Below, one piece after another: positions 1 to 21,800 of a DNA stretch of 64,000 nt; position 1 is the stretch's first letter; every line of letters begins with the position of its first letter. The position numbers and the translations under genes were made by a program. The stretch comes from Rhizodiscina lignyota. Lineage: Eukaryota. The notes below the pieces were generated by a model that made no database searches, was not told the origin of the DNA, and saw nothing but the letters and a program-made list of their open reading frames with translations. The stretch lies in contig ML978124.1 in assembly GCA_010015805.1 (NCBI GenBank), positions 1,426,001 to 1,490,000 on the forward strand, written 5' to 3'.

Positions 1-640
1 TAGTCCCATTGCCCATCCTGAGTATGATAGCAATGTCTTCCCGGGAAGGATATGCTGCAAGGAGAGCTTGCGAGACTTTTTCATATTTGCCTGCATCAGA
101 AGTGGAGGTTCTGGCGGGTGTGGGCGTCTGAGAAGCTGGCGTGCGAAATGCCGACGTCGAGTGATGTGCGCCTTCGTTTGCTTGAGGGAAACTTTCCTGG
201 AGAGATTTTTAGCAACCAGTGACGGAAGTTTGAGTGGTTGTGCCCACCGGCGAGAGCTCATTCAAGGACATGAACGGGGTGTGCTCAGAGTCAACAGGCG
301 TGGGAGCAGCAGGTCTAGGTCTTCGGCCTTCATCAGACGTTGACTGAGCTCCATCTCTTGCAGCACTATGATCGGCCTTCTCAACCAGCTGGCTTAGCAG
401 CGCTTCGACGCGTATAATGCGGCCGGCACTATCCTCTACCTGACTGGGCTCTTCAGGCAGCTCCTGACTGATGCACTTTGTACTGCGCCGCTGACAGGTG
501 ATGCACACTGCATCTGTGGCCGATGCAAACATGCACCGTACCTTTCTTCGCTTGCACTCCCAGCAGCTGTGCGTTCCCTTCCGCACTCTCCTGCGCTTGG
601 CTTGAGGTTCAAGGCCCTCATGTTGCTCGTCGGAAGCCAT
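1..640 (-). CDS. Zn(II)2Cys6 transcription factor, 5' part only (runs off the window start)
   Basis: RKGTHSCWECKRRKVRC...CITCQRRSTKC binuclear-cluster motif; probable intron at about 247-197 (GTGGGC...GCTAA...CCAG) continues the gene. Confidence 0.9.
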
Positions 641-791
641 GTGTCCAGCGGATGAAGCTAATCGGGGCTGGGTGATTTCCGTACGCTTAGCTCCGTCCCA
701 TTGCTCGTCGGAGATGCCTCTGAAGTCATTTATCGAGATGAATCAGTCCGATCAGTTGCGAATGAGGCGAGAACGTTTATTGCTGGATCGT

Positions 792-846
792 CCGCCGACT
801 CGGCGGTCTTATTTGGTATGCGCCGAGTTTTCGGCCGAGTTTTCGG
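792..846. promoter_or_regulatory. CGG/CCG-rich elements upstream of the first TF: inverted repeat CCGCCG-ACT-CGGCGG (792-806) and perfect tandem CCGAGTTTTCGG x2 (823-846)
   Basis: Read directly; CGG triplets are the known Zn2Cys6 half-site. Confidence 0.45.
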
Positions 847-1370
847 GCCAAGTCATGGGCAACCCTTGTCCGCTCAGGGGCTGTCAGGAATGAAAACATT
901 GCCTCACGGTCGAAGACAGTTGGTTCTCTGACTCGTTGGCTGGTGTGAACGCGCCTTATCTGCCACCTACCTAATCCACGTGGGCCTCCCAGTATCCTAC
1001 GCCATTGAGGCTTTACTTAACATTGCAAGATGCTATTGAGCATCGTGGGTTAAAATATTTCAAGTTGATACTTTGGTTGGACGTGACAAGGAAGCTATCC
1101 TCAAGTGCAAAGTACCAGACTGCTAAGGTGATATGCTCTTCTGTGGGTACGATAAACGCTAAGGCGCAGTTGTCTTGATAGATACTGTCTAGACCGGATT
1201 GAATTGAGCTTTCAAAGATGCTCTCGCCTGCCTCGAATAGTAAGACCTGCACGTCGACAACTGTAACACTTCTTCTCGGATTCAACAATTAGGTTGTTGC
1301 TCTCGAGGTTGACGTAGAGTATCTGTGTCTTACACGACTCAACTCGCTCTGACTAAGCCGTATGCACGAC

Positions 1371-2279
1371 TCAAGCGAAAAGGAGGCTGGGATTTTCAAC
1401 CCAGAACTTCTGCCACGTCGTGTCATCTGTTATCCACTCTCTCAGTTTCTGGATATGGGCCGCATTTGGAACCTCCCGAAAGCCTTCTACAGTCTCTAAG
1501 CGCTGCTTCTCTGTCATCCCCGTGCGCCCTTTCCCGAGCTGCGTGTGTGGCCAATCTGAGCCGAAGATAATCTGCGTCGGCCCTGCTTCAATGATGGCTT
1601 TTGCGAGAGGTGTCAAGGAGTCTATGCCCTCTGGGATGCCATTGTACAATCTCTCAAAGCCTGAGAGCTTGACCCATAGGCGCTTCTCTTTAACCAAGTC
1701 CAGGAACTTGCCGAATTCTTCCAACTTCTCCTCCCCCGGAAACGTGCCCCCAAAATGGTCGGCTACAAACTTGATCTTTGGATACGCACGAACTGTAGGG
1801 GCTAGATCAACCCAAGTCCTGAAGTCGCAGAATACATCCACGATCCACTCATGCCGTGAGTCTTGTGATAGTCGCTTCGCCAGAGCGTCAACCTCCTTGA
1901 TCAGCGGTTCCGAACTAGGCCGGCTCTTTGCCTCCCACGCCATCCTATGCAGGCGTGCACCTCGCACGCCAGCGGCATACAGGTGGTTGAGCTCGTCATC
2001 TGTGACGGTATCTGGGACAACCGTTGCAAGGCCGCGTAGCTTGTACCCATCGAGCTTCTTCTCTTCGCTAATCGCCCCGAGCAGAGGCTCAGCTGAATTC
2101 CCCTGCATCGACGCGTGCACAATGACAATGTTTTTGCAGCCGGTGACATCGTTTGGGTAATCTGTTATCAGAGCTGCTTTGGGGGTATACGTGCGTGGTA
2201 TTGCGTATGGGAATTTATCAGGCATGAACACATGAATATGGGTTTCCCAAGCCCCTTCTGGTACCAGTTGATTTCCCAT
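1371..2279 (-). CDS. Amidohydrolase_2 / COG3618 family (2-pyrone-4,6-dicarboxylate lactonase LigI-like), intronless
   Basis: Motifs WETHIHVF, AGVRGARL, DHFG, WVKLSG, FGSDWPHT, ENP; first ATG at 2279 (the ORF-track start at 2333 is TTG). Confidence 0.85.
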   Translation of the reverse strand: MGNQLVPEGAWETHIHVFMPDKFPYAIPRTYTPKAALITDYPNDVTGCKNIVIVHASMQGNSAEPLLGAISEEKKLDGYKLRGLATVVPDTVTDDELNHLYAAGVRGARLHRMAWEAKSRPSSEPLIKEVDALAKRLSQDSRHEWIVDVFCDFRTWVDLAPTVRAYPKIKFVADHFGGTFPGEEKLEEFGKFLDLVKEKRLWVKLSGFERLYNGIPEGIDSLTPLAKAIIEAGPTQIIFGSDWPHTQLGKGRTGMTEKQRLETVEGFREVPNAAHIQKLREWITDDTTWQKFWVENPSLLFA

Positions 2280-2567
2280 CTTCTTATTTACTTTCTCCTT
2301 TAATCTGTTCCTTTCAAGTGCTCGTGGACGCAATGGACCTTGATCCAGATGCTAAATGGGAAATAACAACCCGGGAGAAGCTTGGATACGTGTGTCTAAA
2401 ACCTTTCCAGGTTCCATGCGTGTGAGGATTTAGTGTACGGCGTTCTTGATCATTAGCATCTACCGCAACCACCCCCGCAACCGGGCATGGAAGATCATCA
2501 CCATCCTTGCGAAGTAGTCGGCGAAGTACAATGTTTGTTCGCCTTGTTTCACTGGCTCTAATTTCTG

Positions 2568-2584
2568 CGGAATGAAAGCCCCCG
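2568..2584 (+). promoter_or_regulatory. CGG-N11-CCG putative Zn2Cys6 site, copy 1 (CGG AATGAAAGCCC CCG)
   Basis: Lies in the amidohydrolase/transporter divergent promoter; matches copies at 6215 and 10400. Confidence 0.7.
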
Positions 2585-2937
2585 ATGCCAAGGCGTGCTA
2601 GACAGGGCAGTTCTCACGGAATTGAACAGACCGTGGTCTCATAAGTCATTGAAACTACAAGCCTTGCATACAGCTGTATGTAAGGAGGAGGAGGAGTACT
2701 GTAGTGCCTGCATACTGCCATGCCTGTGGCAAGCGTCCAACAACCCAGCCAACAACCTCGCACTGCAACCTATTCCCATGCTGAAGAACCCTTCTCCGCA
2801 TTTTACTATACGTAGTACATCGCAATGCTGATCAGGATAAAGTGTGGCAAGTACCTTGGACTTCAATTTCTTCTCGTCTCTCGTTATCATTTTGCTGCTG
2901 TCTCTTCAACTCGCTCTGTTCCATACGATAGTTCACG

Positions 2938-4527
2938 ATGGCGTTACTGCAAGACATCAAGACCATTCCTCGTGACTTTGCGGACGCTCTTCGCATGAAG
3001 CCAGTCCAGTACCTGGTCTGGTTTTGCTGCTGGGCTTGCTGGACCTTGGGGTCACTTGATTTCTATTTGCTTCCCTTCACCACGACGAACATGGCAACGG
3101 CATTCAAGGTTAAACAGACGAAGATTTCTGAAGCAAATACGACCTCGATGCTCTCACGTACCATTGGAGCGTTGATATTCGGGATTGCAAGCGATCAGTA
3201 TGGGCGAAAGATTCCATTGTTGATCGATCTTGTCGTTATGGGCGCTGTCACCCTCGCAAATGGGTTTCTCACGACGTATTCGCAGCTCGTCGGTGTGCGC
3301 TTTCTCTTCGGCGTTTGCTACGGCGGTACGTACGGTTTGGCAATGGCTGCGGTTCTCGAAGCGACACCTCAAAAGGCTAGAGGTATTGTCGCGGGCTCGA
3401 CGCAGCAGGGTTTCGCGGCCGGGTACCTGTTTGCGTCGGGTCTCCATCTGGCGATGAGCAAATACAAGTGGCAGGCCCTTTTCTGGCTCGGTGCTGGGCT
3501 CACAATCCCCGTATTCATCATTCGGCTTGTCACTCCGTCATACTCCGTTGTGGCAGAAGCTGTAAGAGACGCTGAAGGCATTCAACGGGTTACAGAGGCT
3601 GCGGCAGTCGGTGGTGAACTCTCGTTTTGGAAGAAGTTCAAGTTCGTCGCACGTCGTCATTGGGCCGTCTTTATATATGCTATCGGTATGTGAAGTCCTG
3701 AGTGGGCTATTAATGAACTGCTGACTCTGGTAAGTTTTGACGGCATGCTTCAACACTACTGGACATGGATCGATGGACCTGTACCCCACATTTCTTGTTA
3801 CCCAAAAGAAGCTCTCTGTTCTCCATGAGACATGGGTGACTTGCATACTCCAGATCGGAGGCATATCCGGTGGTATTGTCGGCGGCTTCTTGTCAAACCG
3901 CTTCTCTCCTCGGTGGGTTGGAGCGACGGCAGCACTAGCCATGGCACCATGGCTTCCGCTGTGGTGCTTGCCAAAGACGTGGAATCTCCTGGCACTTGGA
4001 GCATTCTTCTTCCAGTTCTTCTACGGTTGCGCGATTGGTAATCTGGGCAACATCATGCAGCAGCTCTGCCCGCATCCAGGTATCCGCGGTGCGTTTACTG
4101 GAGTTGCTTACAACTTGGGCAAGTGAGTATCACTACCTTGAAATTTGTGATAGTCGAAATCAGAGATTCTGACGAGATAATCAGCGCTATATCAAGTATT
4201 GCACCTACAATTGAAACTGCGCTAGGCGAGCGCTTCCCTACCGCCGATGGGACTCCCGATTATGCGAAGACTCAGATGATCCTCGTTGGTATTGTCATTG
4301 CGCTGCTCTCTCTGACCCTTGCGTGCATGCCCACGGGGAATATCAACAGGTATTGGGACAAAGAAGATCCGAATGCTGAGATCCCAATCCACGAAGCCAA
4401 GACTATGGATGACATGGCGATTGAGCCCCAGCCAAGGGAAGGACACAATGCGCCATATGGCGATAAGAAGGCTGACGAGATCGAGCAAGTTGAAGAAGTC
4501 CAGCTGCAGGACATGAAGAAGGTGTGA
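2938..4527 (+). CDS. MFS carboxylate/H+ symporter, JEN1/SHS family (3 exons)
   Basis: Hydrophobic TM pattern, SDQYGRK MFS motif, ARGIVAGSTQQGF, JEN1-like signature NTTGHGSMDLYPT, GVAYNLGN; introns at about 3686-3734 and 4123-4184. Confidence 0.88.
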
Positions 4528-4635
4528 TGGAAACGTATTTATTCATCAGGGCAATCTCGGCCAGGTGGAGGGTAAGGTATTCAAACCACTTCCTCTCAAA
4601 CGACCTGTCAGGCCCTTCCCAGAAGCGGCATTTTG

Positions 4636-5813
4636 CTAGTCTGTAGTACATATTATCTTGCCAGCATTGATGTTTGCCTCCATTCTTCTGTGAGCGTCGG
4701 CAACCTGCGTCCATGGATATACCTTGTCGATTGGTACTTTCATATTTCCAACCGCAAAGTGATACATGCACTTCTCGACGAAGGCATCTCGTAGATTGTT
4801 CTGATATTCGGCAGTCCGGTTCCTCAGCGTCGTCCCCTGGATCATCAGCCGCTTATTGAGGAACACTCGAAAGTCGAGGTCTGGGATAACACTGCCGCTC
4901 AGAGAGGCAACAATAACCATTTTCGCCTCCATCGCGGCCGATGCGACGTTTCGAAGCCAGTAGTCCTTTCCGACAAGATCGACGATCAAGTCGACTCCCC
5001 TGCCGTCGGTTTCCCGCTTTACAACCTCCGCGAAATCTTCCTTTTTGTAGTTTACGGCAACATCGGCGCCCAGGCTCTCGCACAACTTGCACTTCTCATC
5101 TGTTCCCGCGGTCGTAATAACCTTCGCTGCGCCGCCCCATTTAGCTATTTGAATGGCAGATGAGCCGACGCCGGAAGCACCGCCGTGGACGAGGACATTT
5201 TGGCCCTTCTGGAGATTACCGACTAGATATATGGCCTGCATGGACGTGAAGAATGTCTGAGAGTTTGATTAATGTGAATTCGAGATGGCATTGGTGCTGC
5301 ATCACGGCGCTGATGGGGCTGTACCTCTGGAATACCCGCGGCGGTCTCAAATGACATGTCCGGTGGCATGTGAATTAGCATCCTTTCTCGTACGGAAATC
5401 TTCTCTGCATACTACAGCAAAATATCAGAACTAGTTTACTCATCAGCTCCAGGGAAATCCACTCACTGCAGACCCATATGCAAGCCCGAAGACCCTGTCT
5501 CCGATTTTGAAGCCCAGCTTGCCTGCAGTGGAGAATCAGCAATTGAAGTGCAAACTCGCGAATAAGACGACCCACACTCAGGGCCCTTCTCCTCGACAAG
5601 TCCACTGAATTCGACTCCCAAGAGCGGTCCCGATTCTGGAAAGAGGACCAATGGATACACAGACTCTCGTTGCATGATATCCATTCTGTTCAGGCCGAAG
5701 GCTTTGATTCGAACAACAATGCGGTCCGTCTCCGCTACCGGATCTGGGTAGTTGTCGTCCATGAAGAGGTCATCGGCGGTGCCTTTGCGGCCTTTGATAT
5801 CAATTACCCTCAT
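4636..5813 (-). CDS. NAD(P)H quinone oxidoreductase, PIG3/zeta-crystallin MDR family (multi-exon)
   Basis: AFGLNRMDIMQR, LGVEFSG, VLVHGGASGVGSSAIQ, GTTLR, MEANINAGKI. Confidence 0.9.
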
Positions 5814-6214
5814 TCTGGCGATGTTTGGAGGAAGAAGAACGAGAGAAGGAAGGGTATGTGAGAGCTGATATGGACAACAAGCAAATTGACACCTTGAATG
5901 CAGGATAGAAAAAAAAATTAGGCTCGAAATTTGAGAAGGAATTTCGCATGCCGCACGCGTCGCTCAACTTCCCGGCCTATGACCTCGACGCGTCTCTACA
6001 TTAGCAAGCAACGGAAAGCCGCGACCCACGGCGCGAACTACCGTTACGCCACCGTACTAAGATACCTAGGTACATTCAATCGCCTCCTTAGACCTTGCAA
6101 CATGACCAGGGCTTTGGCATCTCTGCACAGCTGACCACATCAGGGAATATCAAGGGAATACCATCTCGATATGAGCATGTCTCCGACCCCGCGTTTGAGC
6201 AGAGTGCGGAGAAG

Positions 6215-6231
6215 CGGAACGAAGATCTCCG
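6215..6231 (+). promoter_or_regulatory. CGG-N11-CCG putative Zn2Cys6 site, copy 2 (CGG AACGAAGATCT CCG)
   Basis: Lies in the reductase/aldolase divergent promoter. Confidence 0.7.
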
Positions 6232-6431
6232 CTATACCGGAGAGAAGGTGACCGGTTTGCCTCAAACACCATGTACAGTAAGAGATATTGACTAGTTCAT
6301 GGTCGAGCGGAAAACAAAGATAAAGGACAGTCGGATTTTCCGAAACTTATCATATTAAAACCAAGTCTCAGTCACGAACGACAACAATTGTACTATCTCT
6401 AAAAGAACTTTAACATCAAATCACACTAAAC

Positions 6432-7390
6432 ATGGCACCAAGCCGGATCACCGCTGAGACTGAGGTTGAACCCGCAGTGATCAGACCGAAGCCAGTGGAC
6501 AAGTTCAAGGACGCATATTTTGAAGACGTCCACTCTCTTGGAGACAAAGCTGGCAAAGTCGTCATCCGGTCTCCCCCAAGATTCGATGATCCCTTAGACA
6601 GCAGGCAATACCAGAAGCAGCACCTTGCCGCAGCTTTCAGGGCCTTTGCAAGACAAGGATATGATGAGGGCGTTGCTGGACATATTTCTCTGCGAGACCC
6701 AATCAACCCAGGTATGCAATGAACACAAAAAGATTTGACAACGTAGAGCTCAATTGCTAACTCTCCCCAGAATGGTTTTGGATCAACCCTCTCTCTCAGC
6801 ATTTCTCGCAAATCCGCGTCTCCGACCTTGTGCTGGTCAATGACAAGGGTGAGGTCCAGCCAGAGGGCAACCAGGCCGCCATCAATGGCCCTGCTTTCTC
6901 CATCCATTCCGAAATCCACAAGGCTCGGCCTGACTTGAACGCCGCCTGCCACGCTCACTCTGTGTACGGCAAGGCCTTCTCCTGCTTTGGCCGTCCAATT
7001 GAAATGATCTACCAAGACGCCATTCGCTTCTACAACGACCTCGCGGTCTATCCCCGCTACGGCGGCACAGTGATATCCACCGAGGAAGGCGCCAGGATCG
7101 CAAAAGCCCTTGGACCAACCTGCCGCAGCGTCATCCTCCAGAACCACGGCATGATCACCTGTGGTAAGACCGTGGACGAGGCAGCGTTCCTGTTTATTGC
7201 CCTCGACCGCTGCTGTCATGCGCAGATGATGGCGAATGCCGCGAGTGGCCCGGATTGGCCGAAGATCTACATCGGGAAGGAAGAAGCTGAGATGACGCAC
7301 AAGAAGAGTGGCAACTCAAGTAAGATGTGGTTGGCGTTCCAGCCATACTATGACCAGGAAGTGCAGACGGATCCTGGTTTGCTTGAGTAG
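6432..7390 (+). CDS. Class II aldolase/adducin-head family protein (MUG14/NovR-like), 2 exons
   Basis: [40 protein letters not shown] metal-binding His; intron at about 6712-6769. Confidence 0.9.
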
Positions 7391-7681
7391 AGAGCTTGCG
7401 AATGATAGAGTCCAAATCTGCCGGTTGGAAGTGACCGAAGCCAGCAATGCGGTTGTTTTTGTACTTTCTTCTCCAATGTCTTACTGAGGCATAATATGGC
7501 ATGACACCAAAACTCTCTTTACTTTTAACACAGCTCTCGGTAGCAAAATGATGGGATCCAGTGAGTCGGATCGCTACCATAGAGTTTGAACTTTTAATAC
7601 AGTTACGAGGCAGTGTGCCTTCGGCTGAGAAGGGCATCAAATAAACTTCGAGTCGGACCAGTCTTGCAAGATCGCGCGACG

Positions 7682-9875
7682 TTATGCTGGGCCGTTCAGG
7701 AAATTCTCGTTCATGAAGCCGAAAAGTAGATCCTGGCTAATTGTCTCAAAGCCAGTGAGATCCTGCAGCTGTGCCATATCCCCAAATGGGAACGTTTCTG
7801 GCACCAGCGGTGAGGTGGTCTCAAACTGGACGGTAGACGGCGTAGGAAGATTTGGCAAGGAGTCGGCTACATTCGAGCGTTAGTCATTGGCATACTTGCT
7901 TCTCATTGGTGGCGAAGAAGGGGTGACTTACCTTCAAACGTCGGAATACCATTGTCCGCCATTAGCTTCCTGATAATATTTGCCAAGTCTACAACTCCGC
8001 CGTTCGGCAGCGACAAAATGTCCAGGAACTTCAGACAGGTGAGGAGAAGTGAGGTGTACTTCTCGCTTTCACTACCTTTGTTCTCGGCCGTCGCGAGGTT
8101 GCGTACATGTATCGAGCAAGCTACGTATACTGCGTAACTCAGCAGGTACGATGCCCGGCGTAGTGGATACGCTGATTGATATGAAAGAACAAGGTTCGTA
8201 ATATTTCTAGCAGCAGCAGTGCACTTCCTCCAGGAGTTTGCCGGGATCTTTGTGGAACGGAGATCGCTGTTTGAGATGAATGGTCGATGCAGCAAGATGA
8301 TACATGCGTGGTACGTCGTCAGCAAGATGAGGACGTTCGGAGCCGGTACATTCGGCAGCTGCGTCGAAGGATTTGATGATGGTTCGAAGACTAGATGCGA
8401 CGGGAGGTTGCGATACCATGAGGAAAGGCTGCTGTCAATGGAATCAAGCTCGGCCTGAGTATTGCTTACGGTTGATCCAACAATATAAAACTGATTGATG
8501 ATCCTTGTCATAACCATGGAAAGCGTGCAAATATTCTGGAAGGTAGATATGGAGTAGATTGGCGTCGCGGCTTTGTTTGAGACGTTGGGGCCGGCATCGG
8601 GATTTTGAGGGTCGATGTAAGGAGTCCAAAGCTCCAACTCTTCTATAGTGTCCATGAAATTGCGGCTCACGTTTGCATCACGCAATTCAATGAAGACCGA
8701 GCGGCCGTGATACAGAGATTGCAGTTTATCAACAACAAACGCACCCCAAAATACGCGTCGGCGGATTTCAACAGTCTCCGCATTTTCTTGACTCTCTTTA
8801 ATGTCAAGGTGTAATCCAAGATCATACACCATGCGAAACGCGTAGCCGGTGTAAAGCCAACCTTTTGAGCTCGAGCCTCTTGCGTTAAACGTTGAGCCCA
8901 ACAGAATGAGACCGATAATGGTTGGAATGCTTGAGTATGTGAGAAGAGACTGCTGTGCAAGCAGCTCGTCACAACGAGCGAAGAATCGTTTATCGCTGAC
9001 GACTTCTGGTCGCTCTGAGTACTTGCTTGAACTTGCAAATACTGCGTTGAGGAGGAAATCAGTGCAGTAAGATCCACCTTCCACAAGCTCCCTCATGAAT
9101 AGCGGTCTGTAGGTAAGATGGAACGTATGATGCTGCCGATTCCAATGCAAATCCAAAAGATGAAGTGCTAAATCGGCAGGGACTCCACGAATATAGTTGA
9201 GGCGTCTAAGTCCGTGCTCTTTCTGGAGTTGCAAGGCAGCATTTGCTGTGAGTTGGAATCGCAAATGCTCGGGCACAGAGGTTTCCATATCCATTTTGTC
9301 GTGCGATAATAGTGCCTCGAGTGCGGACGGTGGCCGCACCGCCGGAGAGCCTGCCATAGGCGGACTTTGGAAACTAGGTTCTTCCGGTGCAATCCATACT
9401 GGAGAGCTCTTGTCGTCTTCATGTTGCGAACTTGACATTGCTCGACTACGCGCCTTGCCGTCCGCATTGGCTTCTGAAGCTGATGCCGTCGTCGACGGCG
9501 GTGAGGGGAGCTGAACTGTGCCATCGTTGACCGTAATATTTTCCAACGCTGAGATCCTCTCTTCTTCGCTACCGTTCTTAAGGCGAATTAAAACATCTTT
9601 GAATGCATCTCGCTCCCTCTGGAGAGCGTGTATAATAGCTTTCGATGGTCTAATAACAAGTCAATCACATGATACTATGGTTCCTCTCAGGGGTATCAAT
9701 CTGCATACCTTTTCTTGGGAGGCTCAATTACATAAACGCACTCGCGGCCATTCGCATTGCATGAACCACAACTTGGTCGTTTCGTATCGCATTTGATTTT
9801 GCGGATTCGACAGAATTGGCATGCTCGGACCGAACTCCGGGGCAGCGATGAGTTTGAAGGAACTCCCGAAGACAT
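7682..9875 (-). CDS. Zn(II)2Cys6 transcription factor with fungal-specific TF (middle homology) domain, NirA-like; 3 exons
   Basis: Exon 1 (9875-9709, not in the ORF track) encodes ACQFCRIRKIKCDTKRPSCGSCNANGREC; it splices in frame to ORF 7903-9546 (GWLYTGYAFRMVYDLGLH, RRRVFWG); last exon ends at TAA 7682. Confidence 0.9.
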
Positions 9876-10399
9876 CGGAATTCAATTGTCCAGTTTATTG
9901 AGCATCGAATGTCTCCGCTGTAAGGGGTCTGTAGCAGAGCACGAACTGAAACTCGCCGCTCGAATTGGTCCGGCGCGAGAACACAACCCGCTGGACAGTT
10001 GATGCTGTGTGGCGGTGGACTTCTCTCCAATCAAGGATCCTGTCTGTCGATGTTGCTCCGATGGACAGAAAAGTTCCGTTGAGCTATCCACAGTGTTGGT
10101 ATAAGGGTTGAGTTCTTCCAATTGATGTTGCTCAATGGAATATGAAGTTTTGGGTCAAAGAATCAATTAAGCGTTTCTGAATCGCGGTGTTCTGAACGAA
10201 GTGGAGTGGAAGTATACAGCCGACGCTATTGCGGGCACCGCTGTGGCCGATTTCCTGCACTCTCAGAGCGAAAAATCGCATTACCCCGCAAGTCAGCGGA
10301 CAGAAATCCCCACAGCAGAGAGGTCCCAAGGTCCTCAAGTGATGTTCGCGTTTGGTTAGACCGGTTGCGCTCTCTGGGTGCCCCGGTTAGCATGCTGAG

Positions 10400-10416
10400 C
10401 GGAGCGAAACCCTCCG
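10400..10416 (+). promoter_or_regulatory. CGG-N11-CCG putative Zn2Cys6 site, copy 3 (CGG AGCGAAACCCT CCG); degenerate copy at 10297-10313
   Basis: Lies in the TF/dehydrogenase divergent promoter. Confidence 0.7.
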
Positions 10417-10600
10417 TAAACTTCGAGCCACCCCCAGCACTCTATCCAAAACACGGAGATATCCAGCTTCGAGCTCCCAAGGAGGCAGAGCACGTGTGCT
10501 GCAGGAGCAGATAGAATTCCGATGTAAAAACCTTTGCACTGAAGACCGCGATTGATTGGCTCTCTGCATTTAGATCGACTTGGACAACTCTTCAACAGCC

Positions 10601-11676
10601 ATGGCCGCCAATCGGACGTGCACTATCGCCATCATAAGTGTGGGCGAGATGGGACTGGGCATTGGCCAGCTGCTTAAGGCGCACAAGTATAGAGTCGCCA
10701 CATACGCTGCCGACAGAAGGTATGATGAGATGCATTGTACGCAGTCCAGGCCTAATCGATAGTTGCAGTAAGGGGACTCAAGATAGAGCCTTCTCTGCTG
10801 GAATCGAGCTATTACCTTCACTAGAAGCACTCTTTGACGAAAGCGACTACCTGCTATCCATAGTGCCCCCGCGAGATGCCCTGTCTACTGCAAATCGCAT
10901 CGCTTTGGCAGCGTCCAAGTGCAATCAGAGAAAGGAGCCATTATACTATTTGGATTTGAACGCTGTATCACCGCGAACAGCTCGGGAAACCGAAGAGTTG
11001 TTCCGCCAATATTCAAATATATGCCTAATTGATGGCGGCATTATTGGAGGTGTCCCCTATCAGAAGAAGGCTGCCGACTCCACCGCAGGAGACCCGGACT
11101 GGCATTGTCCATCACTTATGGTCTCTGGGCCAACGCAAGTTCCGGATCAGAGCCTGGCAAAGATTCTCAATGTCCGACATGTCGGAGATACCATTGGGCC
11201 TGCTACTGGATTGAAGATGTGCTTTGCAGTAACAACAAAGGGATTCATCTCGTTGGCGATAGAGTCATTCGTAACAGCACACCGACTGGGAGTTCTACCC
11301 GAACTAAAAGAGTATCTTGGTGAGTACAACGCATCCACGCTGAAAATTGCGGAGAAAGGCCTTGTTACAATGCCGCCGAAAGCCTACCGTTGGGTTGGGG
11401 AGATGCTGGAAATATCGCGAACAATGCATGAAGATGGAGGGTTTGATCCAACAATGTGCGTATTACAGTCTTGTGAGCTCAAGGAAATGCCCGTTAGATG
11501 ACGAGATGACCAGATTCGAAGGCGTAAGCGAAGTATATAGATTTGTTGCTGACGAGTCTGAGCTGGGAAAAGAAAAGCCAGGCGCCAGAGTCCGTGGGAA
11601 GACGGTCGAAGATGTAGTCGAGCTATTGAGTCAAGCCATGGAGCAGAGAAGCCCCGATGTCAACAAGACCACATAG
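10601..11676 (+). CDS. NAD(P)-dependent beta-hydroxyacid / 6PGD-like dehydrogenase with DUF1932-type C-terminus (3 exons)
   Basis: IAIISVGEMG Rossmann start, YLDLNAVSP, IDGGIIGG, ATGLKMCFA, MPPKAYRWVGEMLEI. Confidence 0.8.
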
Positions 11677-12090
11677 ACAATATGGGCCAATTCTGAGCAG
11701 TTTTTATGGCATCCGAAGTCAAAACAAGGCGACATTTGATGCACTACAGCAAATGGGTCAAACCCAATTTCGCGCTGAGCCGAAAGGAGCATGAATATTG
11801 CCCTGAATTGAAGTATCTGGGAGCCAGAGCACCCAAAATTGATGCGTTGTATGACGAAGATAAGAAGAGAGGTTATTGAGCAAAAGCGAGATTACATTCC
11901 AGCCTGTATCGTGGAAAAGCAGAGCGTCGGCACGTGACCGCGTGATTTATCGGCATTCTCCGTTGCCGCCTGCTAGGCTGGTCGCGTCTAACTCGGCGCG
12001 TCATCTCTGTTGCTTCAACTCTCAGAGACATCACCAATTCGTCCCAAAACCTTCCATCGAGAAACGAAAACTGTCAACGACTCGGTGGCC

Positions 12091-13850
12091 ATGCCTGCGT
12101 ATGTATATCATTGCTTAGTCTGCACAATGACTAACAGTTATCTCAGGCCAGGCGACCAACACAAGGCAATCAACAATCCATTCCACGATGAGAGGCCACG
12201 CATCAACGAGTACACTGCACAGGAGATAGCAACACTGCAAAGTCGGCTGGACAAACAGCTCGGGCCAGAATATATCTCGACTCGCCCTGGTGCAGGTGGA
12301 AGCAAGGTTCATTATTTGGCGGCTGAGAAAGTCATAAATCTTGCAAACGAGGTCTTTGGGTTTAATGGTTGGTCAAGCTCAATACAAAATGTTCAGATTG
12401 ACTTCGTGGGTATCACATGCTCCTTCCCTTTTGCCTACTGACCAAAACCGCAGGTCGATGAAAGTCAAAGCACCGGCAAAATCAGCCTCGGCCTCTCGAC
12501 AATTGTGCGGGTCACACTGAAGGATGGAGCTTTTCACGAGGTATGGGTGGAATACGCTTTCCATGGTTTTACGCATTTTCTAACATTGTGAAGGATATCG
12601 GATATGGTCAAATTGAAAACTGCAAAGGCAAGGCAGCCGCGTTCGAGAAAGCCAAGAAGGAGGCGGCGACAGACGCGTTGAAAAGAGCACTGCGGAATTT
12701 CGGAAACGTACTCGGAAACTGTCTTTACGACAAAGACTATCTCCAGAAAGTAACGAAGCTCAAACATCAGCCGGCTAAATGGAATGTGGACAAGCTCCAC
12801 AGGCACCCAAGCTACGCGGCAGCGCGAAATGACTCGCCATCTGAGGTCCCGACAGAGCCTATTGGAGGCTCTAGAACTGGAAGCCTACAATCCAAAGCTA
12901 CCAACAGCACTGACTTTGAGGATGATTTTGGAGGAAACCTCTTTGAAGGGGTTGATCTCGACTCAGCACGGCCAGACGAAGTCGTCCTCGACACCACCTC
13001 TGCCGCTTCAGGCGACATCTCAGACCCTCGACAATCGGATGGTGCACAAAGGACGTCTCACAATTCCGAGCTGAAGCATCAAGTGCCTAGAGTGCAGTCA
13101 ATGCCCGCACTGCAGCCACCTGAACCTGGACCTGGACCACAGAATTTCCAACCTCAAAAAGCCTCCTTGCCACGACAACAGCAGCCACCACCGCAGAATA
13201 TGCACTTGACCTCGAATGGTGAAACTATTCGTAACCGCTCATTAGCAGTACAGCCAGAGGCGAACCAGGCCCATAGAATGCAGCAAACGTCTCATCCGCA
13301 GGGCAACAATACCTCAAATACCCCACCGAACCGTAACCTCCACCAACAACCACCCAACCAACAGAATGAAAAGCAAGGGGAGTCGGTCGGTTTCGTATCT
13401 GGCCGCGCTGCGGAGCTTATGCAGAACCATGGCGCACCACATGCACCATTACCTCCCAATGCACCAGCTTTCAACCCGCATCAGGATAGTCCTTCGTTAA
13501 GACGCACAAATGGAGTCGATCATAACAAGTCCTTACCAATCAACAGGAGTGCCCTGACGAGCGTGGCACAGAATGGCAATCCCAACGCACAGCCTCAACA
13601 GCAGCAACCTCCTCAACCTCGAGGAAACTTTGTCAATCCGCAGGCAGACGCGAACCGAAGGATCGGAATGCCTAGCGTTGCTCACAGTCCGCTCGCGAAT
13701 AGAGGTGGTTACAAACCACCGGGACCTGCGATCCAGAAACGCGGGCCCGATGGAATGCCGCGGCCCCCTCTTGCAGATATGAGCAATGTAATGTTGGATG
13801 CCAATGGAGGTGAGGGGGTGGATGCGAAGAGGCCCAAGATTGCAAGTTAA
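12091..13850 (+). CDS. RAD52: DNA repair/recombination protein Rad52 (Rad22)
   Basis: [59 protein letters not shown]; 3 introns. Confidence 0.97.
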
Positions 13851-14124
13851 TTCTTCTCCTTCATGGAAGAACCGAAGCACAAGCGTTGCATAGAACGGTT
13901 ACTTTGCATATGCGAACCGGACATAGCTGAGGCGTTTTGCTCTATACTATTGGCATTTCTTAGCGGTCACTTTGGTGTTCATGATACCAAATGTATTGAA
14001 TTCTACAACGTCTAGCATGCTCATCTGCTGGATATCAACGCCGAAATTATTTTAAGCACGTTCTGAGAGGTTCGCTCTTCAATCATGATAAAGCTCTTGC
14101 TTAAAGGAGCGGCATGTATTGCCT

Positions 14125-15169
14125 TCAACCATTGACAATTACGCCACCGTTTGCGTGTATCACCTGTCCACTGACCGATGAGCTGTCCGTACTTGCCAGA
14201 AACACAAAACAGCAAGCAATCTCGCTCGGCTGACTCGGCCTTCCCATAGGACTTGTGAACTGATCCTGTGCCTTGTGGTTCATCGTTGCCGGTATCAGTG
14301 GCGTCCAGACTGGTCCTGGCGCAACGGCATTGACGCGAATGCCCCGTCCAACGTACTGATTCGACAGACCGCGTGTGAAGGAGACAATAGCGCCCTTGGT
14401 GCTGGTGTAATCGAGCAGGTCAGGACGGCCGATGTAGGCATTGATACTGGCGTTATTGATGATGGTGTCTCCCTTTTTCATGTGCGGGAGGATGTATTTG
14501 GAGAGGTAGAAGAAGGGGTGAATGTTCGTGTTGAATGTGCGCTCCCACTGCTCTCTGGAGATGCTGTCAGCTTCGTGATGATTCATGTAGTCAAAAATCG
14601 TGAAGGCCTACTCTGAGAGGTCTTGAATGTCCTGGACCATCATCTGATACGCGTGGTTGTTCACAAGAACGTTAATTGCTCCCATTGCCTCGAGCGCCTT
14701 CTCGACCGCGGCCTTGCAGTTCTTCTTGTCCGTCAAATCGGTGGAGAAGAGGTGGCACTTCCTGCCTTTTTCTTCAACCTTCTTCTTCGTCTCTTGAGCG
14801 TCTTCCTCTTCCTGCGGCAGGTATGCGATAAAGCTGTCGGCACCCTCCATCGCGAAGAGGATCGCAATGGCACGGCCGATGCCAGAATCGCCACCTGTTA
14901 TCAATGCCTTCTTGCCTTCGAGTTTGCCTGCCGCTTTATAGAGCTGGTAGCCGCCATCTTCGGTCGGGACATGTTCGGACTGTGGAGTGGGACCTTTGAG
15001 CTCAGATTGGAGTCCTGGTGGCTGCTGGTCTTGGATGGGAACTTTGTGACCTAGACGCGAAGTCAATTAGTCATTTCTATCAACCTTTACTTGTTTTGAC
15101 GCACTTACCAGACTCGAACTGGGAGTCTGAGCCGGTCACAGACTTAGCAACGTTCTTCGCGGTGTCCAT
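14125..15169 (-). CDS. Short-chain dehydrogenase/reductase, YghA / general-stress-protein-39 type
   Basis: ITGGDSGIGRA, LDYTSTKG (YxxxK), IRVNAVAPGPVWTPLIP; 2 introns. Confidence 0.92.
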
Positions 15170-15754
15170 ATTGAGAGATTTCAGAAGCTGTTTGGGTTGG
15201 AGAAGCTATGGAGTCTCTTGAGAAAGAAATTGAATAGGATATGGAGCGAAACGGAAATGGATACTTTAAGCCTCTGAAAATTTATGACATATTTCGATGC
15301 GAAGCGCGTCGTACTTGTGACATCACGATCGATCGGCATCGGAATCCGACATTGCCATGCAGATCACTTTCACATGCTGCTTGGGGGGATCCATAATGAA
15401 GCGTTTGTCGCAAAGGTATCGGAATCCATCAATGTTGAAAACACGAAAGCTCGATGAGCGTGGCTGCAGCAAGGCCGGAGAGACGACTCGCTCAATATCT
15501 CCTTCTGGTTAGCGCAGCACCTTGTATATCAAGGTAGCCCACACTTCGACTCAGCCCGACCAGATTTGCACCACCACTACTCAAGTCTTTCAGTTTAAAA
15601 TGAATCCCGTGTAAGTCTGGTTCCAGTCCTCGAGAACATTTACAGTCTATCTCGATCTCTGCCTGTCGCCTCAGCTCTTCCCAGCGAATCTCAAGTCAGT
15701 CAGTTCAACTGCATATTATCAGGCCTCCAAACGGGCTCCTATTCTTCTAAAAGC

Positions 15755-17863
15755 ATGACCGGGCAATATCAATTTACATCTCTCGAGCCACGTCGTTTTC
15801 GTCTTCTCAGTGTATTACCTGGCACTGTTCCCACGCCTTTGGTTTGCTCCCTCTCAGATAACTCACTGGACGATCCTCCCGCATATGAGGCGCTTTCATA
15901 TGCCTGGGGCTCTGCCGAGTTCTCTGAGCCAAATTTAACGCTTAATGGGTACCAAATTTGCATCATGACTGAACTGGAGAAAGCCCTCATTCGACTTCGG
16001 CACCCAGACGCTGTACGAACCCTGTGGATTGACGCCATTTGTATCAATCAGGCTAACACTCAAGAACGTAATGCTCAAGTCACAATTATGACTGATGTTT
16101 ATAGAGCTGCGGAGCGTGTGATTGCATGGCTGGGTGAAGAGACTGCCGATAGCAAAAAAGCGTTTACCTTTCTCAAAGAGATGGCAATGCACAAGAAGTC
16201 CGCATTGCGCCACACTTGGATGGATGGCACTAGAATGGGAAGCGATACCAGCTCTGAATGCGGAGATGGCAGTACGGACAGGCAGCATGTGCAACCTACC
16301 GACTATCAAAGCGATGACGACGAACTATCGAACTGGCAATTGAACAGGCAGAGCGATGACGAAGACGAGAGCGGAGAGGTCGAAGATGAAAGCCAGAGTG
16401 AGAGCAGTGTGGATGAAATGCCAGACAAGGAAAGTGAGGATAAGATATCAAGTCAGAAGAGAAGCGACGAACCGAACCGGGAGGACATAATAAATGAAAT
16501 GATGTCGAATCGGAGGCAGCAGGGACACCACCTTGTAACCGGAATTCCAGAACTCTACTATGACGGTGATATGGTGTATGACTCTTTCTTCGAAAACAAT
16601 CAGCAGGCAAACTGGAAAGCCCTGGACAACTTGTTGGCACGGCCGTGGTGGTCACGAACATGGATCGTCCAAGAAGTATGGCATTCATCGAATTGCTTGT
16701 TACAGTGCGGCAGGTCTACTCTCAAATGGAAGACTTTCGAAAAAGCCATGGACTACCAAGAAGGTTGGGATGACATGGGAAACATGATCAAGCAAACGAA
16801 GAGATGGAAACATTGGCCCCTGCTCAAGAGAAGGTATGGGCTCGCAATACATCTTTCGCAGAAACGCCTGCTTGGTGCGAAGCTCTCTGATCTATTGTGG
16901 AATATGTGGGACAGAGAAGCAACAGACCCAAGGGACAAAGTCTTCGCAGTTCTGGGTTTGGTTGGGCATGGAAGTCGAGAGGTTCTTCCGCTCCCTGATT
17001 ACTCCAAGAGCGTACAACAAGTATTCCAAGAGGTCGGGGTACATATCATACAGCAAGACAAGAACTTGGACATTCTACTCGCAGCAAATGGTCTAGAGAG
17101 ACGAAACGGACTGCCTTCATGGGTTCCAGATTGGAGACGGGATGCCAACGATGTCCGGCCCGCATTATTTATCAACGGGGCACGTATGCGAATGCTCTGC
17201 TATTTTTCTGGTTCTGCAGACATGGTTCTTCTACACGGCCATGGATACTCTGCATCAGGAGACTCAGAGGTCTGGACCCAGTTTAGTGAAGACCTGGCAA
17301 CCCTCCATGTTCGCAGCTTCCTCCTGGGGACTGTCGTCAGTGTGGGACCTGTGTGTGGCGGCAACAGGAAAGCTGCCACTATCATCAAAGCAGCTCGGTC
17401 AACCATAGCGAGCTCGAATACTCTAGCAAGCCCTCAGCGAGCGCTTGCCGTGTCGAAACAAAAGCTCGGTCTAATTCTCAGGGCTGGGTCTTATGTGAAT
17501 AACGGCAGGGATCCTATGCCAGGCCAAAAAGAAGATCAAGTCATCGAAAACATCATGGATAAGCGGCGCTTCTTCATTACCAGCGCTGGCCATCTCTGTA
17601 TTGGAGCAGCTCGAACACAACCAGGGGACAATGTGCGCATCATTGCTGGCTGCAATTTCCCTATGGTGTTGCGGCCCGAGGGGGATAGCTATAGCCTCGT
17701 TGGCGAGGCTTACGGTGAGACATATCTGTGATAATTATTTCACCTATCACTAATTGTCATGATGATAGTCCACGACAACATGGCCGGTGAGGCTTTGGGT
17801 CAGCGAAATTCTCAGGGCAAGCTTGAGAAAGAACCACAGTGGTCGGAGATACGTATACGATAA
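15755..17863 (+). CDS. Heterokaryon incompatibility (HET) domain protein, HET-6-like
   Basis: YEALSYAWG, LWIDAICINQ, ERNAQV, RPWWSRTWIVQE, ATDPRDKVFA, LPSWVPDW, LVGEAY|VH; terminal intron at about 17715-17768. Confidence 0.92.
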
Positions 17864-18226: not shown

Positions 18227-18680
18227 ATGACTGTCGAGCCTCCGCCGCACCCCCGACCGTATTGCGCTGCGACCGTACAGCTCGTCCCTGAAATCTATGT
18301 CTCCGTGTCACGCTCCGATGCCTTCTAACATCAATCGGATTCAGACTGGAATGGTAAGTCCCGGACCTGTTCGCACAACTGTCCTGTGATGACAGTCTCC
18401 TCTTCTTGAAAGCCCGGAGCTCAGAAAGTTGGTCCTTCTCGACCTCCAATGTTCGCGTCATGGTGCCCGACGTTGACGCCAAATACGAAGAGATGAAGGC
18501 TGTTTTGGGAGATGACTGGAAAGATAGAGTCGTGCAGGATATTGGAGATAGGAAATTGTGCTGAGGGACTTCGTTGTGATGGATCCTGATGAGTTTGAGA
18601 TGCGGCTTGGGAGCCTCTTGGCGGGTGGAGGGAGGGAAGAACCGAGCGGTCCGGACGATGATATTGTTATCAAAGCATGA
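18227..18680 (+). pseudogene. Glyoxalase/bleomycin-resistance (VOC) family pseudogene
   Basis: Reconstruction gives QLVPEIYVS..RSDAF(Y)TSIGFRLEW*VPDLFAQL..LLFL..NVRVMVPDVDAKY..IGDRK/VLRDFVVMDPDEFEMRLG; frameshifts at about 18327 and 18556, in-frame TAA at 18355-18357. Confidence 0.75.
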
Positions 18681-18828
18681 GAGAGCCTTCCAGAAGATAT
18701 TCTGATTTCGAGTCCTGTTCCCGGCCACTCAAGCCCAAAGACACATGCGCTGCAAAAAAAATTGGTTGAGAACATTCTGAGATACTGCCGCACACGCAAT
18801 CTAATGCTAAACAATTTATCCCACTACA

Positions 18829-21800
18829 TCATCGAAGTTTACACCCGCGCCATGAGTACGCTATCATCATCTCCTTGTCTTGGCTATGCAGCCAAACTGC
18901 CCAATCTAAGAGCGATCGACGTACCCGACCATATCGCCCTTCCAACGGAATCTCGATTTGGCGGATGCCTGACCAGAATTTCACTCGTTCCAGGGCTTCT
19001 GGAAGCTGGCCTCCTGCTTCAATTGCGAGCTGTTCGGTAACTTGGTCGACAAGGATCCATGCCTGGAGATCCGGGAAGTCTTTCGAAGCCATGTATGCCA
19101 TTGATACAATGGCAACCCGCTCAGCAGAGTGCAACAAAGCTCTTCGGAGAAGACTTTTTACGGCGCACAGTCTTCCCCATGAAGCGGCTCTGATGAGTGC
19201 CTCGCGTAAGGACTCCAAATCCGTATTTTCCAGTTCTGTGCATATAAGTTCGATGAGTCGAGCATCATCTCGAAGCGCTGCTGGTACCAAGAATTGCATT
19301 GCTTTCTCTGCGGTGCTCTTGTCAGTTTGAGGCCGATTTCCAGTCCTGGATAGTCGTAATAGCATCCTGAATTCTTGAGGAAGTATCGATACCCAAATTT
19401 GCAGAGATGTGGGCTCATGGTTGTCCCCAGGCCTTGAATTCATGATAAACGTGCTTAGGCTAATGGATCCCTCGAATGTCATATCCAAAGAGCTTTCAGG
19501 ACTGGATTCATAATTCCAATGACATCCTGCGGTGACTGCCAACGAATACATATCCGGTCCCCGGCAATACATGAGGGCAGTCGCCTTCTTTACGTTTTGG
19601 GCATTGACGTCTGCGCCATACGCTACAAGAGTTCGGAAGACGTCGTGCTTCCCACACTCAGCAGCATGCATGAGCGCAGTACCTCCAAGCAAGGTTTTCC
19701 TGTTTGGGTTACTATTATTGTCAAGCAAAAGCTTTACCATTTCCAGATGGCCCCGGGATACTGCAAAGTGCAAAGGTGTCCACATCCAAACGTCTCTGGT
19801 GTCAACCTCTGCACCATTCTCTAAAAGCGATTTCGCCGACTCAACCTCATTCATAACAGCAGCCAGGTGTAGCGGAGTCCCCGAGAAATTTGATTGAAGA
19901 AGATGGCGCTTGTTTCGATCTTGAGGGTCGATTAGCTCAAGCTGTGGTCGACGTTCGTTCGGATAATCTCTCGGGCGTTTGTTAAGCATTTCCGTTATTA
20001 GTTTACGAGATATGGAAACACGTGGGACATTGCCATTCTGTCGTTCGACTCGTTCGACACTCGCTGTCTCCGCCATGAATCGGAGTAACGCAACAGTTCC
20101 TTCGTGGTTCCTACATGCCACCGAAACATGGAGCGGTGAGAATTGGTTTGTGCTCCATTCTTCCGGATCCACAGCATCCAAGAGTGTAGGAAGCAAGTTC
20201 CTGGAGAGATCTGCGTGTCTAGCGGCCAAATGCACTGCTGTATATCCCAACAGAGGTCCACAGTTAATTTGTCCTCTTGGATTGCACTTCAAGTTGAGGA
20301 GCCACTTGGGAAATGGAGTTTCACTGCGACAGAGGGAAGTTACGAAGAGGGTGCAGACTCCACAATGTGAGGACATTTGATCAACACTTTGTCCAGGCGC
20401 AGAAGTAATCTGCTTGAACACCTCTAGGTTTCCCCGTTCTAAAGCCCTTGATAAGGCGAAGGATTGGATTAATTCAGCACGAACTGCCGCTGATGTTGTT
20501 TCAGGAGCGTCTGGACTGAGTCGTACTGTTCTCTGTTAGTTAACAGTCGCGATGCAAGAATATGTGCATGAACACCGGCGAATTATGGGAATTATGGGAA
20601 TTATGTCAATCATACCTTCGTCCGTCTGCAGTCCCTTGAGAATCTCCATCGCCTTGCTTCTCCCCTCGCACATTGCAAGCGCCTTTGGTGTATCACCATT
20701 CTTATCCGGCCCTTGTGGAGTTCCACTGTCGACAAGCAAGCCGAGAACCTCTTCAGATGCTGTTACGTTGAAAACTCCGTGATGTAACGCACTCCATCCG
20801 AGGTTGTCGAGAAGCTTGACATCTGCACCTCGATCGATCAGACTTGCAATCATGTATCCATCTGTGACGGCAGCAGCAGAGTGTAATGGAGTCCGGCCCC
20901 TGTCGTCTCGAACATTCACGTCGATCAGTGCACGGTCAAGCAAGAAGTTGACGGCAGTAACCTTGTTGTTCAGTACGGCAAGATGCAGAGCACTGCAGCC
21001 ATCAAAGCGTGTACCCGCAGGTTTGAAACTTGCTGCTTTCAGATTCCATTCCACGGTATGGCGTGAGAATAAGTGCAGTATATTTTCGTTGCCTAAGTGT
21101 GCTGCCCAGTGCAGGGGGTACCAATTCCTTTGGTTCACAGAGCCGCCTTTTAAGTCTAGCCGTGCACCAAAGACGAGGAGTTGTTCAACAAACGAGACAT
21201 TGCCCAGTTGTATCGAATGGATGAGACTTAAGTCTCCGTTTTCGCCGCGGATGTTCACGTTGGGAATCAATTTGTGGGTATGGTGCAAGAGCGACTCGTT
21301 AGTACAGGGCCCTTTGCAAAGAATGTGCAGCAATGAGTCACCAGTTGAATGTAGTGAAGGTGCCGATCTGTACGCCTCACAAAGTTTCAAAATGAGGTGT
21401 TCGCTGTGATTCTCCGATACGGTGATGCACAATTGTTCCAACGCGGAGAAGCCCCCTGGACTGGGATTACGGAGATTCGGATCGATGCCTTTAGACAAGA
21501 GCTGCAGTGATAAAGATTCATCGAATATGCAAGCTTGAAGTGGTCGCCAACTCCCTACAGGCTGTTCCAAGTGGCGGACCTCGTTTATTGCAGCGATAGT
21601 GATATTGAGGAGCTTCCGGATGTGTTGTGTTTTGGAAAGATGTTGCTTGATGCCTTCTGGTGTATTCTCGTAGCTGTCTTTGATGAGTTCTCGGATTAAT
21701 TCGCAAAAAAAAGAACCTCGGCTGCTGGTTCGCAACGTCAAGTCTGCTCCAATCTCGAGGAAATTTGCAAGCAGACGAAGCTTCACGTCAACTACTATTT

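Follow-up and report, generated by a model that had tools for sequence, protein, structure and literature searches.

The 64,000-nucleotide stretch of Rhizodiscina lignyota DNA analysed here (contig ML978124.1, positions 1,426,001 to 1,490,000 of the forward strand; referred to as the window) carries, between positions 1371 and 11676, six intact genes that form a conserved metabolic cluster of filamentous ascomycetes. The genes, designated g1 to g6, alternate in orientation (− + − + − +), their relatives are linked in other fungi, and the three promoters between the divergent pairs share a gapped motif with a defined spacing. We interpret the locus as a fungal catabolic cluster under Zn2Cys6 regulation that stands a fair chance of encoding new pathway chemistry. 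Judged from the sequences, the chances are about even that the cluster is conserved for, and controlled by g5 in, the catabolism of an unsaturated, carboxylated lactone of pyrone or muconolactone type; lactones of this kind arise from the cleavage of aromatic or lignin rings.

Open reading frames, Pfam scans and manual splicing yielded six gene models in which all frames are open and all introns are of the GT-AG type, with lengths of 49–68 nt. The genes on the minus strand encode a COG3618-type amidohydrolase (g1, 1371–2279; single exon, 302 aa; Amidohydro_2), a PIG3-type quinone/enone reductase using reduced nicotinamide adenine dinucleotide phosphate (NADPH) (g3, 5813–5576, 5522–5467, 5411–5325 and 5256–4636; four exons, 333 aa; ADH_N and ADH_zinc_N), and a Zn2Cys6 transcription factor (g5, 9875–9709 and 9649–7903; two exons, 637 aa; Zn_clus and Fungal_trans). 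Those on the plus strand encode a sialate/Jen-type carrier of the major facilitator superfamily (MFS) (g2, 2938–3685, 3735–4122 and 4185–4527; three exons, 492 aa; MFS_1/Sugar_tr), a class II aldolase-fold protein of the NovR/CloR/TqaM group (g4, 6432–6711 and 6771–7390; two exons, 299 aa; Aldolase_II), and an NAD(P)-binding DUF1932 dehydrogenase (g6, 10601–10719, 10769–11455 and 11514–11676; three exons, 322 aa; NAD_binding_2 and DUF1932). RAD52 (12091–13850, Rad52_Rad22 domain) lies directly to the right of g6. A preliminary description of this DNA had reported six genes in three divergent pairs ending at RAD52; the coordinates and orientations were all borne out, and the six family assignments hold in comparisons with Pfam, NCBIfam and the PDB.

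The linkage of these genes in other fungi was followed by a metagenome scan with a g1 alignment, which returned 15 loci; the spliced proteins of the window were then compared with these loci by script. Three of them, L007, L008 and L009, lie on near-identical fungal contigs of 381–755 kb and represent one organism recovered in three samples. Here, five of the six genes are found within 9.2 kb (8189–17401), at 45–80% identity and in another order: g6 (8189–9228, +), g1 (10001–11120, +), g3 (12726–11557, −), g5 (13623–15651, +) and g4 (17401–16553, −). The matches to g3 are split into four pieces near the exon boundaries of the window gene. Two short contigs carry parts of the set, with g1, g5 and g6 present in L004, and g2 and g1 in divergent orientation in L003. 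The g5 orthologues inside the cluster in L004 and L007 are 44–53% identical to g5.

A second line of evidence comes from cross-reading three hit tables, for g1, g4 and g6, with 117, 120 and 120 matches listed, respectively; linkage was scored from contigs of equal size from the same source or species. Among the matches listed, g1 was linked to g4 in 13 cases (7 on contigs of 8.3–60 kb) and to g6 in 17 (7 on contigs of 2.5–57 kb), and g4 was linked to g6 in 7, with locus tags that agree for the g4–g6 linkage (V492_04690/V492_04696 and IFR05_001276/IFR05_001281). The tightest pair is g1 and g6, which have contigs of 2.5, 3.9 and 7.1 kb in common and are adjacent in L007. The named species in the tables belong to the Dothideomycetes, Eurotiomycetes, Sordariomycetes and Leotiomycetes, and carriers of the cluster probably include Aspergillus section Nigri, Paecilomyces variotii and Rasamsonia emersonii. 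There are counter-examples: in Aspergillus ellipticus, g1 and g6 lie on separate contigs, and in Pestalotiopsis fici the g4 and g6 tags are distant from each other.

A third case was found in the gene table of Aspergillus niger ATCC 1015, which gives InterPro labels and coordinates (Supplement 1 of PMC5153877). Five cluster-type genes lie within 11.5 kb of chr_502 (100082–111600), namely a zinc alcohol dehydrogenase-type gene of the medium-chain dehydrogenase/reductase (MDR) family (100082–101240, −), a class II aldolase gene (101744–102691, +), a Zn2Cys6 gene (102969–105451, −), an amidohydrolase 2 gene (108182–109081, −), whose 900 bp fit the 299-aa g1 orthologue P0008, and an MFS gene (109985–111600, +). 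All five probable cluster genes are expressed at low level in all eight RNA sequencing columns, with regularised log (rlog) values of 2.4–7.8 (2.4–6.6 for the enzyme and carrier genes and 6.7–7.8 for the transcription factor gene). An NmrA-like gene (106525–107778, −) has rlog values of 9.7–12.6, indicating that it is not co-regulated with the others. Membership of the cluster is thus conserved, and the architecture of three divergent pairs given in the preliminary description is not: in L007 the members are kept together and their order differs.

Strict alternation of orientation has by itself a chance expectation of ~3%, and it is the conserved linkage together with a common promoter motif, not orientation, that lifts the six-gene layout above chance. 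Together, the divergent promoters span 2001 bp (3.1% of the window) and contain 5 of its 11 CGG-N11-CCG sites (binomial p = 1.2e-5). Two sites lie between g1 and g2 (2568–2584 and 2617–2633), two between g3 and g4 (6215–6231 and 6238–6254) and one between g5 and g6 (10400–10416), all read on the plus strand. CGG-N11-CCG is the classical Gal4 site. No enrichment was found in the three promoters at the other 15 spacings between 0 and 15, nor is there a general excess of CGG/CCG triplets in them. Considering that the three promoters have no exact k-mer of 8 nt or more in common and that the gapped motif is enriched, the promoter signal lies in the gapped motif. A refined version, CGGARNGAA-N5-CCG, which was derived from the same sites, occurs four times in the 64 kb, each time in one of the three promoters, against 0.12 expected. 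The symmetric form CGGA-N9-TCCG occurs three times in the window against 0.86 expected and is not significant alone, 7 of 100 shuffles reaching three.

The fungal contig L007 provided an independent test. It contains 13 CGG-N11-CCG sites against 3.18 expected, a number reached in none of 100 shuffles, and 9 of the 13 are in the 5′ regions of cluster and flanking genes: at 2913 and 2952 for a LigI-like gene, 5651 for an MFS gene, 7658 and 7717 for the pair formed by a carrier gene and g6, 9623 for g1, 13151 for the g3/g5 pair, and 18020 and 18255, two sites between g4 and a TcuA-like gene. One site is also found upstream of g1 in each of L003 and L004. That six unrelated genes lie side by side by chance, each being a member of a large family common in fungi and their orientation pattern having the expectation given above, is highly improbable in view of the linkage retained in rearranged order in several lineages and of the spacing-specific motif enriched both in the three promoters and in L007. 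The g5 protein matches both expected domains (Zn_clus, 44.4 bits with a cut-off of 21; Fungal_trans, 101.1 bits with a cut-off of 23), and we infer that it probably controls the cluster through the candidate CGG-N11-CCG sites in the three promoters. A Gal4-type site occurs in each of the shared promoters and is enriched in a second species, which makes the self-regulation proposed earlier likely.

The g1 protein matches PF04909 (Amidohydro_2 TIM-barrel) with 79.9 bits (cut-off 26.4), and its top NCBIfam model is that of 4-sulfomuconolactone hydrolase (NF042924), at 88.2 bits far under the equivalog cut-off of 500. At E ≤ 0.01, its only relatives in the PDB are five entries of COG3618 type: 4i6k, LigI (4d8l and 4dia), 2ffi and 4mup; no sugar lactonase is among these matches. 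Residues H14, H16, H175 and D242 of g1 are aligned with the H-x-H motif, H180 and D248 of LigI, which we take to be catalytic, and are invariant across 46 sequences. R109 is equivalent to R124 of LigI, and R130 and Y156 are replaced by W115 and F150; presumably, these three LigI residues hold the carboxylates of the substrate. By its residues, g1 is accordingly distinct from LigI proper, keeping one of the three positions. These comparisons place g1 nearest to the LigI/sulfomuconolactone-hydrolase side of COG3618 and make it a probable lactone hydrolase, and we argue that its own substrate is a lactone related to 2-pyrone-4,6-dicarboxylate (PDC) rather than PDC. As a separate observation, a GC-rich contig (L005, 10001–10957) carries a g1 homologue of 47% identity with no cluster partner in the 10 kb upstream.

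In L007, the cluster is three genes away from a true LigI homologue (1665–2759, −). Its gene lies in two open frames, probably separated by an intron, that match 4d8l with E values of 7.5e-54 and 2.8e-45. This homologue keeps R124, R130 and Y156 and is 60–78% identical to proteins of Pseudomonadota, which suggests that the fungus acquired a bacterial lignin-pathway enzyme by horizontal transfer. The flank also contains an anion-type MFS gene (TIGR00893) and a mitochondrial carrier gene. On the other side of the cluster, a gene divergent from g4 (18449–20263, +) exceeds the TcuA equivalog cut-off (485 against 369 bits); a single literature search listed no paper on a fungal TcuA. The LigI- and TcuA-type flanks point to catabolism of a ring-cleavage pyrone or of a tricarboxylate. 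The preliminary description had suggested either an aromatic ring-cleavage pyrone or a sugar-acid lactone as the substrate; the former gains indirect support from LigI and TcuA in L007, and the latter is weakened by data for A. niger on galactaric acid, described below. In A. niger, an aromatic-ring hydroxylase gene lies ~2 kb beyond the left end of the cluster, and a second MDR gene is found just to the left too. The gene adjoining the LigI-like gene in L007 (1–1488, +, cut by the edge of the locus) encodes an RPE65-family protein resembling lignostilbene-alpha,beta-dioxygenase (432 bits, cut-off 800).

For g4, the description as a class II aldolase-fold protein is correct with respect to the fold, and the characterised relatives are oxidative decarboxylases rather than aldolases. 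Exon 2 alone scores 254.4 bits against NF004855 (PRK06208; subfamily cut-off 255), and the full-length A. niger orthologue P0120, 87% identical to g4, scores 344.6 bits. The best PDB matches are TqaM (1.8e-46) and NovR (1.2e-45), together with 9n43 and 4xxf, and fuculose-phosphate aldolases follow only at ~1e-7. On sequence grounds, g4 probably belongs to the PRK06208 or NovR/CloR/TqaM group. The motifs IHSEIH, CHAHS and NHG are present in the gene model, at what we take to be the usual metal positions of class II aldolases (a three-His site). In the alignment with TqaM, chain indices 73 and 122 fall on His in AGHIS and Asn in INGPAF; we equated these indices with H74 and N123 of the published numbering assuming an offset of +1, and the residues matching these two carboxylate-binding positions are thus kept in g4. 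In the available passages of the TqaM report, the enzyme ligates a non-heme iron by three His residues and binds a 2-hydroxy acid, by the carboxylate and hydroxyl groups of the latter, which it decarboxylates oxidatively (PMC13351049). CloR and NovR are described, in the passages available, as O2-dependent oxidative decarboxylases acting first on a 2-oxo acid and then on a mandelate-type acid (PMC13111500). Because TqaM and NovR/CloR decarboxylate oxidatively and the binding residues are kept, decarboxylation is favoured, and C–C cleavage by this route appears more likely for g4 than an aldol reaction.

Among the matches listed, g4 orthologues are 75–90% identical across four fungal classes and those of g1 and g6 only ~50–68%, indicating that g4 is under much stronger constraint than g1 or g6. 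With NovR/CloR of aminocoumarin biosynthesis and TqaM of fungal 2-aminoisobutyrate biosynthesis, its best solved relatives, g4 shares the fold and the equivalents of H74 and N123. It differs from them in forming an orthologue group of its own, with the identity across classes just given, and in lying in a catabolic-looking cluster. TqaM and NovR, the solved proteins nearest to g4, both serve biosynthesis, and the locus might alternatively be a core-less biosynthetic cluster, comparable to that of kojic acid and free of a polyketide synthase (PKS) or non-ribosomal peptide synthetase (NRPS). Its product would be a small acid or unusual amino acid, g4 would have the part that TqaM-type enzymes have in amino-acid biosynthesis, and g2 would be the exporter. 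A transcription factor, an MFS carrier and a few tailoring enzymes form a known biosynthetic layout, and the low values of the A. niger genes in all eight RNA sequencing columns resemble those of many silent biosynthetic clusters. We nevertheless regard this alternative as quite unlikely. The locus has no scaffold-forming enzyme; partners of the TqaL/TqaF type were not noted among the annotated neighbours, no search having been aimed at them; g2 falls into families of H+-symport importers; the L007 neighbours are of catabolic types (LigI, TcuA and lignostilbene-dioxygenase-like); and the identity of g4 orthologues over four classes is unusual for secondary metabolism.

The remaining members were assigned with varying precision. 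The top NCBIfam model for g2 is TIGR00891, with 132.4 bits for exon 1 and 68 bits for exon 2, under the subfamily cut-off of 552.9; the second-best family, the aromatic acid:H+ symporters, is likewise under its cut-off, and the MFS_1 domain is recognised with 67.3 bits (cut-off 33.4). Jen1 is presumably a member of the same sialate/Jen-type family, TIGR00891. The last exon of g3 (206 aa) alone reaches 216.3 bits against the PIG3 model TIGR02824 (cut-off 296.8), and the best PDB matches, 4dup, 2oby and 2j8z, are all quinone oxidoreductases. For g6, the database protein P0238 has the same length as our model (322 aa) and is 100% identical over exon 2; it matches PF09130 (DUF1932) with 78.7 bits (cut-off 25) and PF03446 (NAD_binding_2) with 26.2 bits (cut-off 21). 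Residues K189, K197 and R39 of g6 do not vary when the protein is aligned with 40 distant relatives. No NCBIfam model matches g6, its only PDB matches (4ezb and 1i36) are both uncharacterised, and the DUF1932 clusters of ascomycetes and bacteria in a protein-cluster atlas have no function assigned to them.

Detoxification systems commonly include a lactonase, a quinone/enone reductase of the PIG3 type and an MFS carrier, and the distribution of the cluster among wood, plant and soil fungi is patchy, as might be expected if it served to remove a plant or microbial toxin with a lactone or quinone structure (butenolide, pyrone or quinone type) rather than to use a carbon source. Such a function is improbable for a unit whose carrier is of an importer-type family, and the decarboxylase, the hydroxy-acid dehydrogenase and, in L007, TcuA and the mitochondrial carrier point to central metabolism instead.

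In the preferred reading, the catabolism of a carboxylated unsaturated lactone, g2 would import the lactone anion and g1 would open its ring. The conjugated C=C or quinone-like bond would then be reduced by g3 with NADPH, g6 would interconvert the 2-oxo and 2-hydroxy acids, and g4 would remove C1 as CO2 in a metal-dependent, probably Fe(II)/O2-dependent, oxidative decarboxylation, leaving a saturated polycarboxylate as the product. A dehydrogenase of the TcuA type, present in at least one fungus, might convert a tricarballylate-like product into an aconitate-type intermediate of the tricarboxylic acid (TCA) cycle. The substrate class, the order of the steps and the direction, towards breakdown, are what we infer from these assignments. 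A more specific version is a lower pathway for lignin-derived acids, in which a pyrone or an oxalomesaconate-type tricarboxylate would be processed by LigI or g1, followed by g3, g6 and g4, to tricarballylate, which TcuA would convert to cis-aconitate. This version would give all enzymes a role and would account for the L007 neighbours, and we consider it doubtful. If true, the route would replace the hydratase and aldolase steps used by bacteria and provide first physiological roles for DUF1932 proteins and for the conserved fungal PRK06208 proteins.

A number of observations weigh against the proposed pathway or against parts of the evidence for it. PDC is unlikely to be the substrate of g1, because g1 is without R130 and Y156 of LigI. 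The 64-kb window contains no ring-cleaving dioxygenase, LigI orthologue, TcuA or stilbene dioxygenase, so that the aromatic link rests on one other organism, seen in three samples, and on one neighbour in A. niger. The gene set is not fixed: a g2 homologue was not found in the L007–L009 loci, and no gene near the A. niger cluster carries a g6-like label, none of 12 genes labelled 6-phosphogluconate-dehydrogenase-like being on chr_502; some lineages can thus dispense with g2 or g6. Orthology in A. niger was inferred from labels, sizes and order, not from sequence, and the refined motif CGGARNGAA-N5-CCG was defined post hoc. Bacterial neighbourhoods offer little parallel. In the best 80 of 590 confirmed bacterial DUF1932 loci, a biased sample mostly from Poribacteria and Chloroflexota, no homologue of g1 or g4 lies within 10 kb (0/80). 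In 20 regions of 19–19.5 kb around g1-like genes of Pseudomonadota, the neighbours include one g2-like, one weak g3-like and two weak g6-like genes.

Further inspection of these bacterial loci gave a weak MDR gene adjoining the DUF1932 gene in 6 of the 80 and a heterogeneous Pfam content of the neighbours in 8 DUF1932 loci. Of 401 Pseudomonadota genomes, 52 had a match to g1; the same 20 regions contain neither g4 nor TcuA as a neighbour, and the neighbour Pfam domains at the three most g1-like bacterial loci were uninformative. An origin of the cluster from a bacterial operon was considered and set aside, as no comparable neighbourhood was found; owing to the bias of the sample, this rejects only the simple picture of a shared operon.

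The same transcription factor-controlled catabolic unit may act on another lactone, either of a sugar acid (aldono-, aldaro- or ascorbate-type) or of a hydroxy-tricarboxylate (isocitrate- or hydroxycitrate-type), in which case g6 and g1 would constitute a dehydrogenase–lactonase pair and g4 would shorten a 2-hydroxy acid by one carbon. COG3618 also includes sugar lactonases, the close linkage of g1 and g6 is typical of dehydrogenase–lactonase couples, and the TcuA neighbour fits a tricarboxylate substrate too. In addition, 2-hydroxy acids are substrates of TqaM-type enzymes according to the passages available (PMC13351049). Set against this, the PDB and NCBIfam neighbours of g1 are of LigI and sulfomuconolactone type, as described above, and a PIG3-type enone reductase would have no obvious role on a saturated sugar acid. 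Expression in A. niger on galactaric acid also argues against a sugar-acid substrate: at 0, 5 and 18 h, the probable g4 reaches 0.76, 3.73 and 0.63 fragments per kilobase per million (FPKM) and the probable g1 1.09, 1.31 and 0.09 FPKM, compared to 545–6627 for the genes selected in the galactaric-acid study (PMC5153877). We therefore hold a lactone of this kind to be possible and, on balance, unlikely. The galactarate pathway itself was rejected as the function of the cluster, given that the seven genes chosen in that study are different and that galactaric acid does not induce the probable A. niger counterparts of g1 and g4.

Comparison with known systems places the cluster near, and outside, several of them. 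The lower part of the bacterial 4,5-cleavage pathway for protocatechuate and gallate consists of LigI, a hydratase and an aldolase; g1 has the H-x-H, His, Asp and R124 equivalents of LigI, and in L007 the likeness extends to the true LigI homologue close by. Unlike LigI, g1 is without R130 and Y156, and unlike the bacterial pathway, the cluster combines a reductase, a DUF1932 dehydrogenase and a NovR/TqaM-type enzyme, which suggests reduction and decarboxylation in place of hydration and aldol cleavage. No LigJ-type hydratase appeared in the PDB search with g1 at E ≤ 0.01, and no other search was aimed at LigJ or LigK. The FAD-dependent (flavin adenine dinucleotide) dehydrogenase TcuA of Salmonella tcuRABC is matched above the equivalog cut-off by the L007 gene divergent from g4; the difference from tcuRABC is that a TcuA-like gene lies next to the cluster in one organism only, with none in the window. 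With fungal catabolic clusters controlled by Zn2Cys6 factors, such as qut for quinate and hxn for nicotinate, the locus shares a resident Zn2Cys6 factor, a carrier, enzymes, divergent promoters and CGG-type sites, and its enzyme set matches none of the described clusters of this type found in the literature. Our literature search, with subscription journals outside its coverage, found no published description of this gene set, and the main-text passages available from a preprint on fungal clusters for phenylpropanoid degradation do not mention these families (10.1101/184242).

The fungal handling of aromatic and lignin ring-cleavage acids is poorly mapped, and cluster finders of the standard type skip clusters without a PKS or NRPS core. 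The locus is a defined, conserved unit of five to six genes that includes a regulator and has a candidate site for its binding, and the function of the unit can be tested in tractable species. Roles could follow for fungal COG3618 enzymes, DUF1932 dehydrogenases and the conserved fungal NovR/TqaM-like proteins, and the enzymes may be a source for converting lignin-derived pyrones or producing tricarboxylic acids.

At the left of the cluster, a second Zn2Cys6 gene (1–640, −; Zn_clus) adjoins g1 and runs off the window edge, leaving the left border of the cluster open. This gene may encode an additional regulator of the cluster or be part of a neighbouring unit; no CGG-N11-CCG site was found upstream of it. 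Just past RAD52 on the right, a short-chain dehydrogenase gene (adh_short, 14125–14850, −) shows no sign of cluster membership. Elsewhere in the A. niger genome, another class II aldolase gene (1181626; chr_201, 671412–672471) and two amidohydrolase 2 genes (1157716; chr_401, 430355–431493, and 1156173; chr_102, 1621530–1622962) are 12–13-fold up on galactaric acid (PMC5153877 supplement), and paralogues of g4 and g1 may take part in sugar-acid catabolism.

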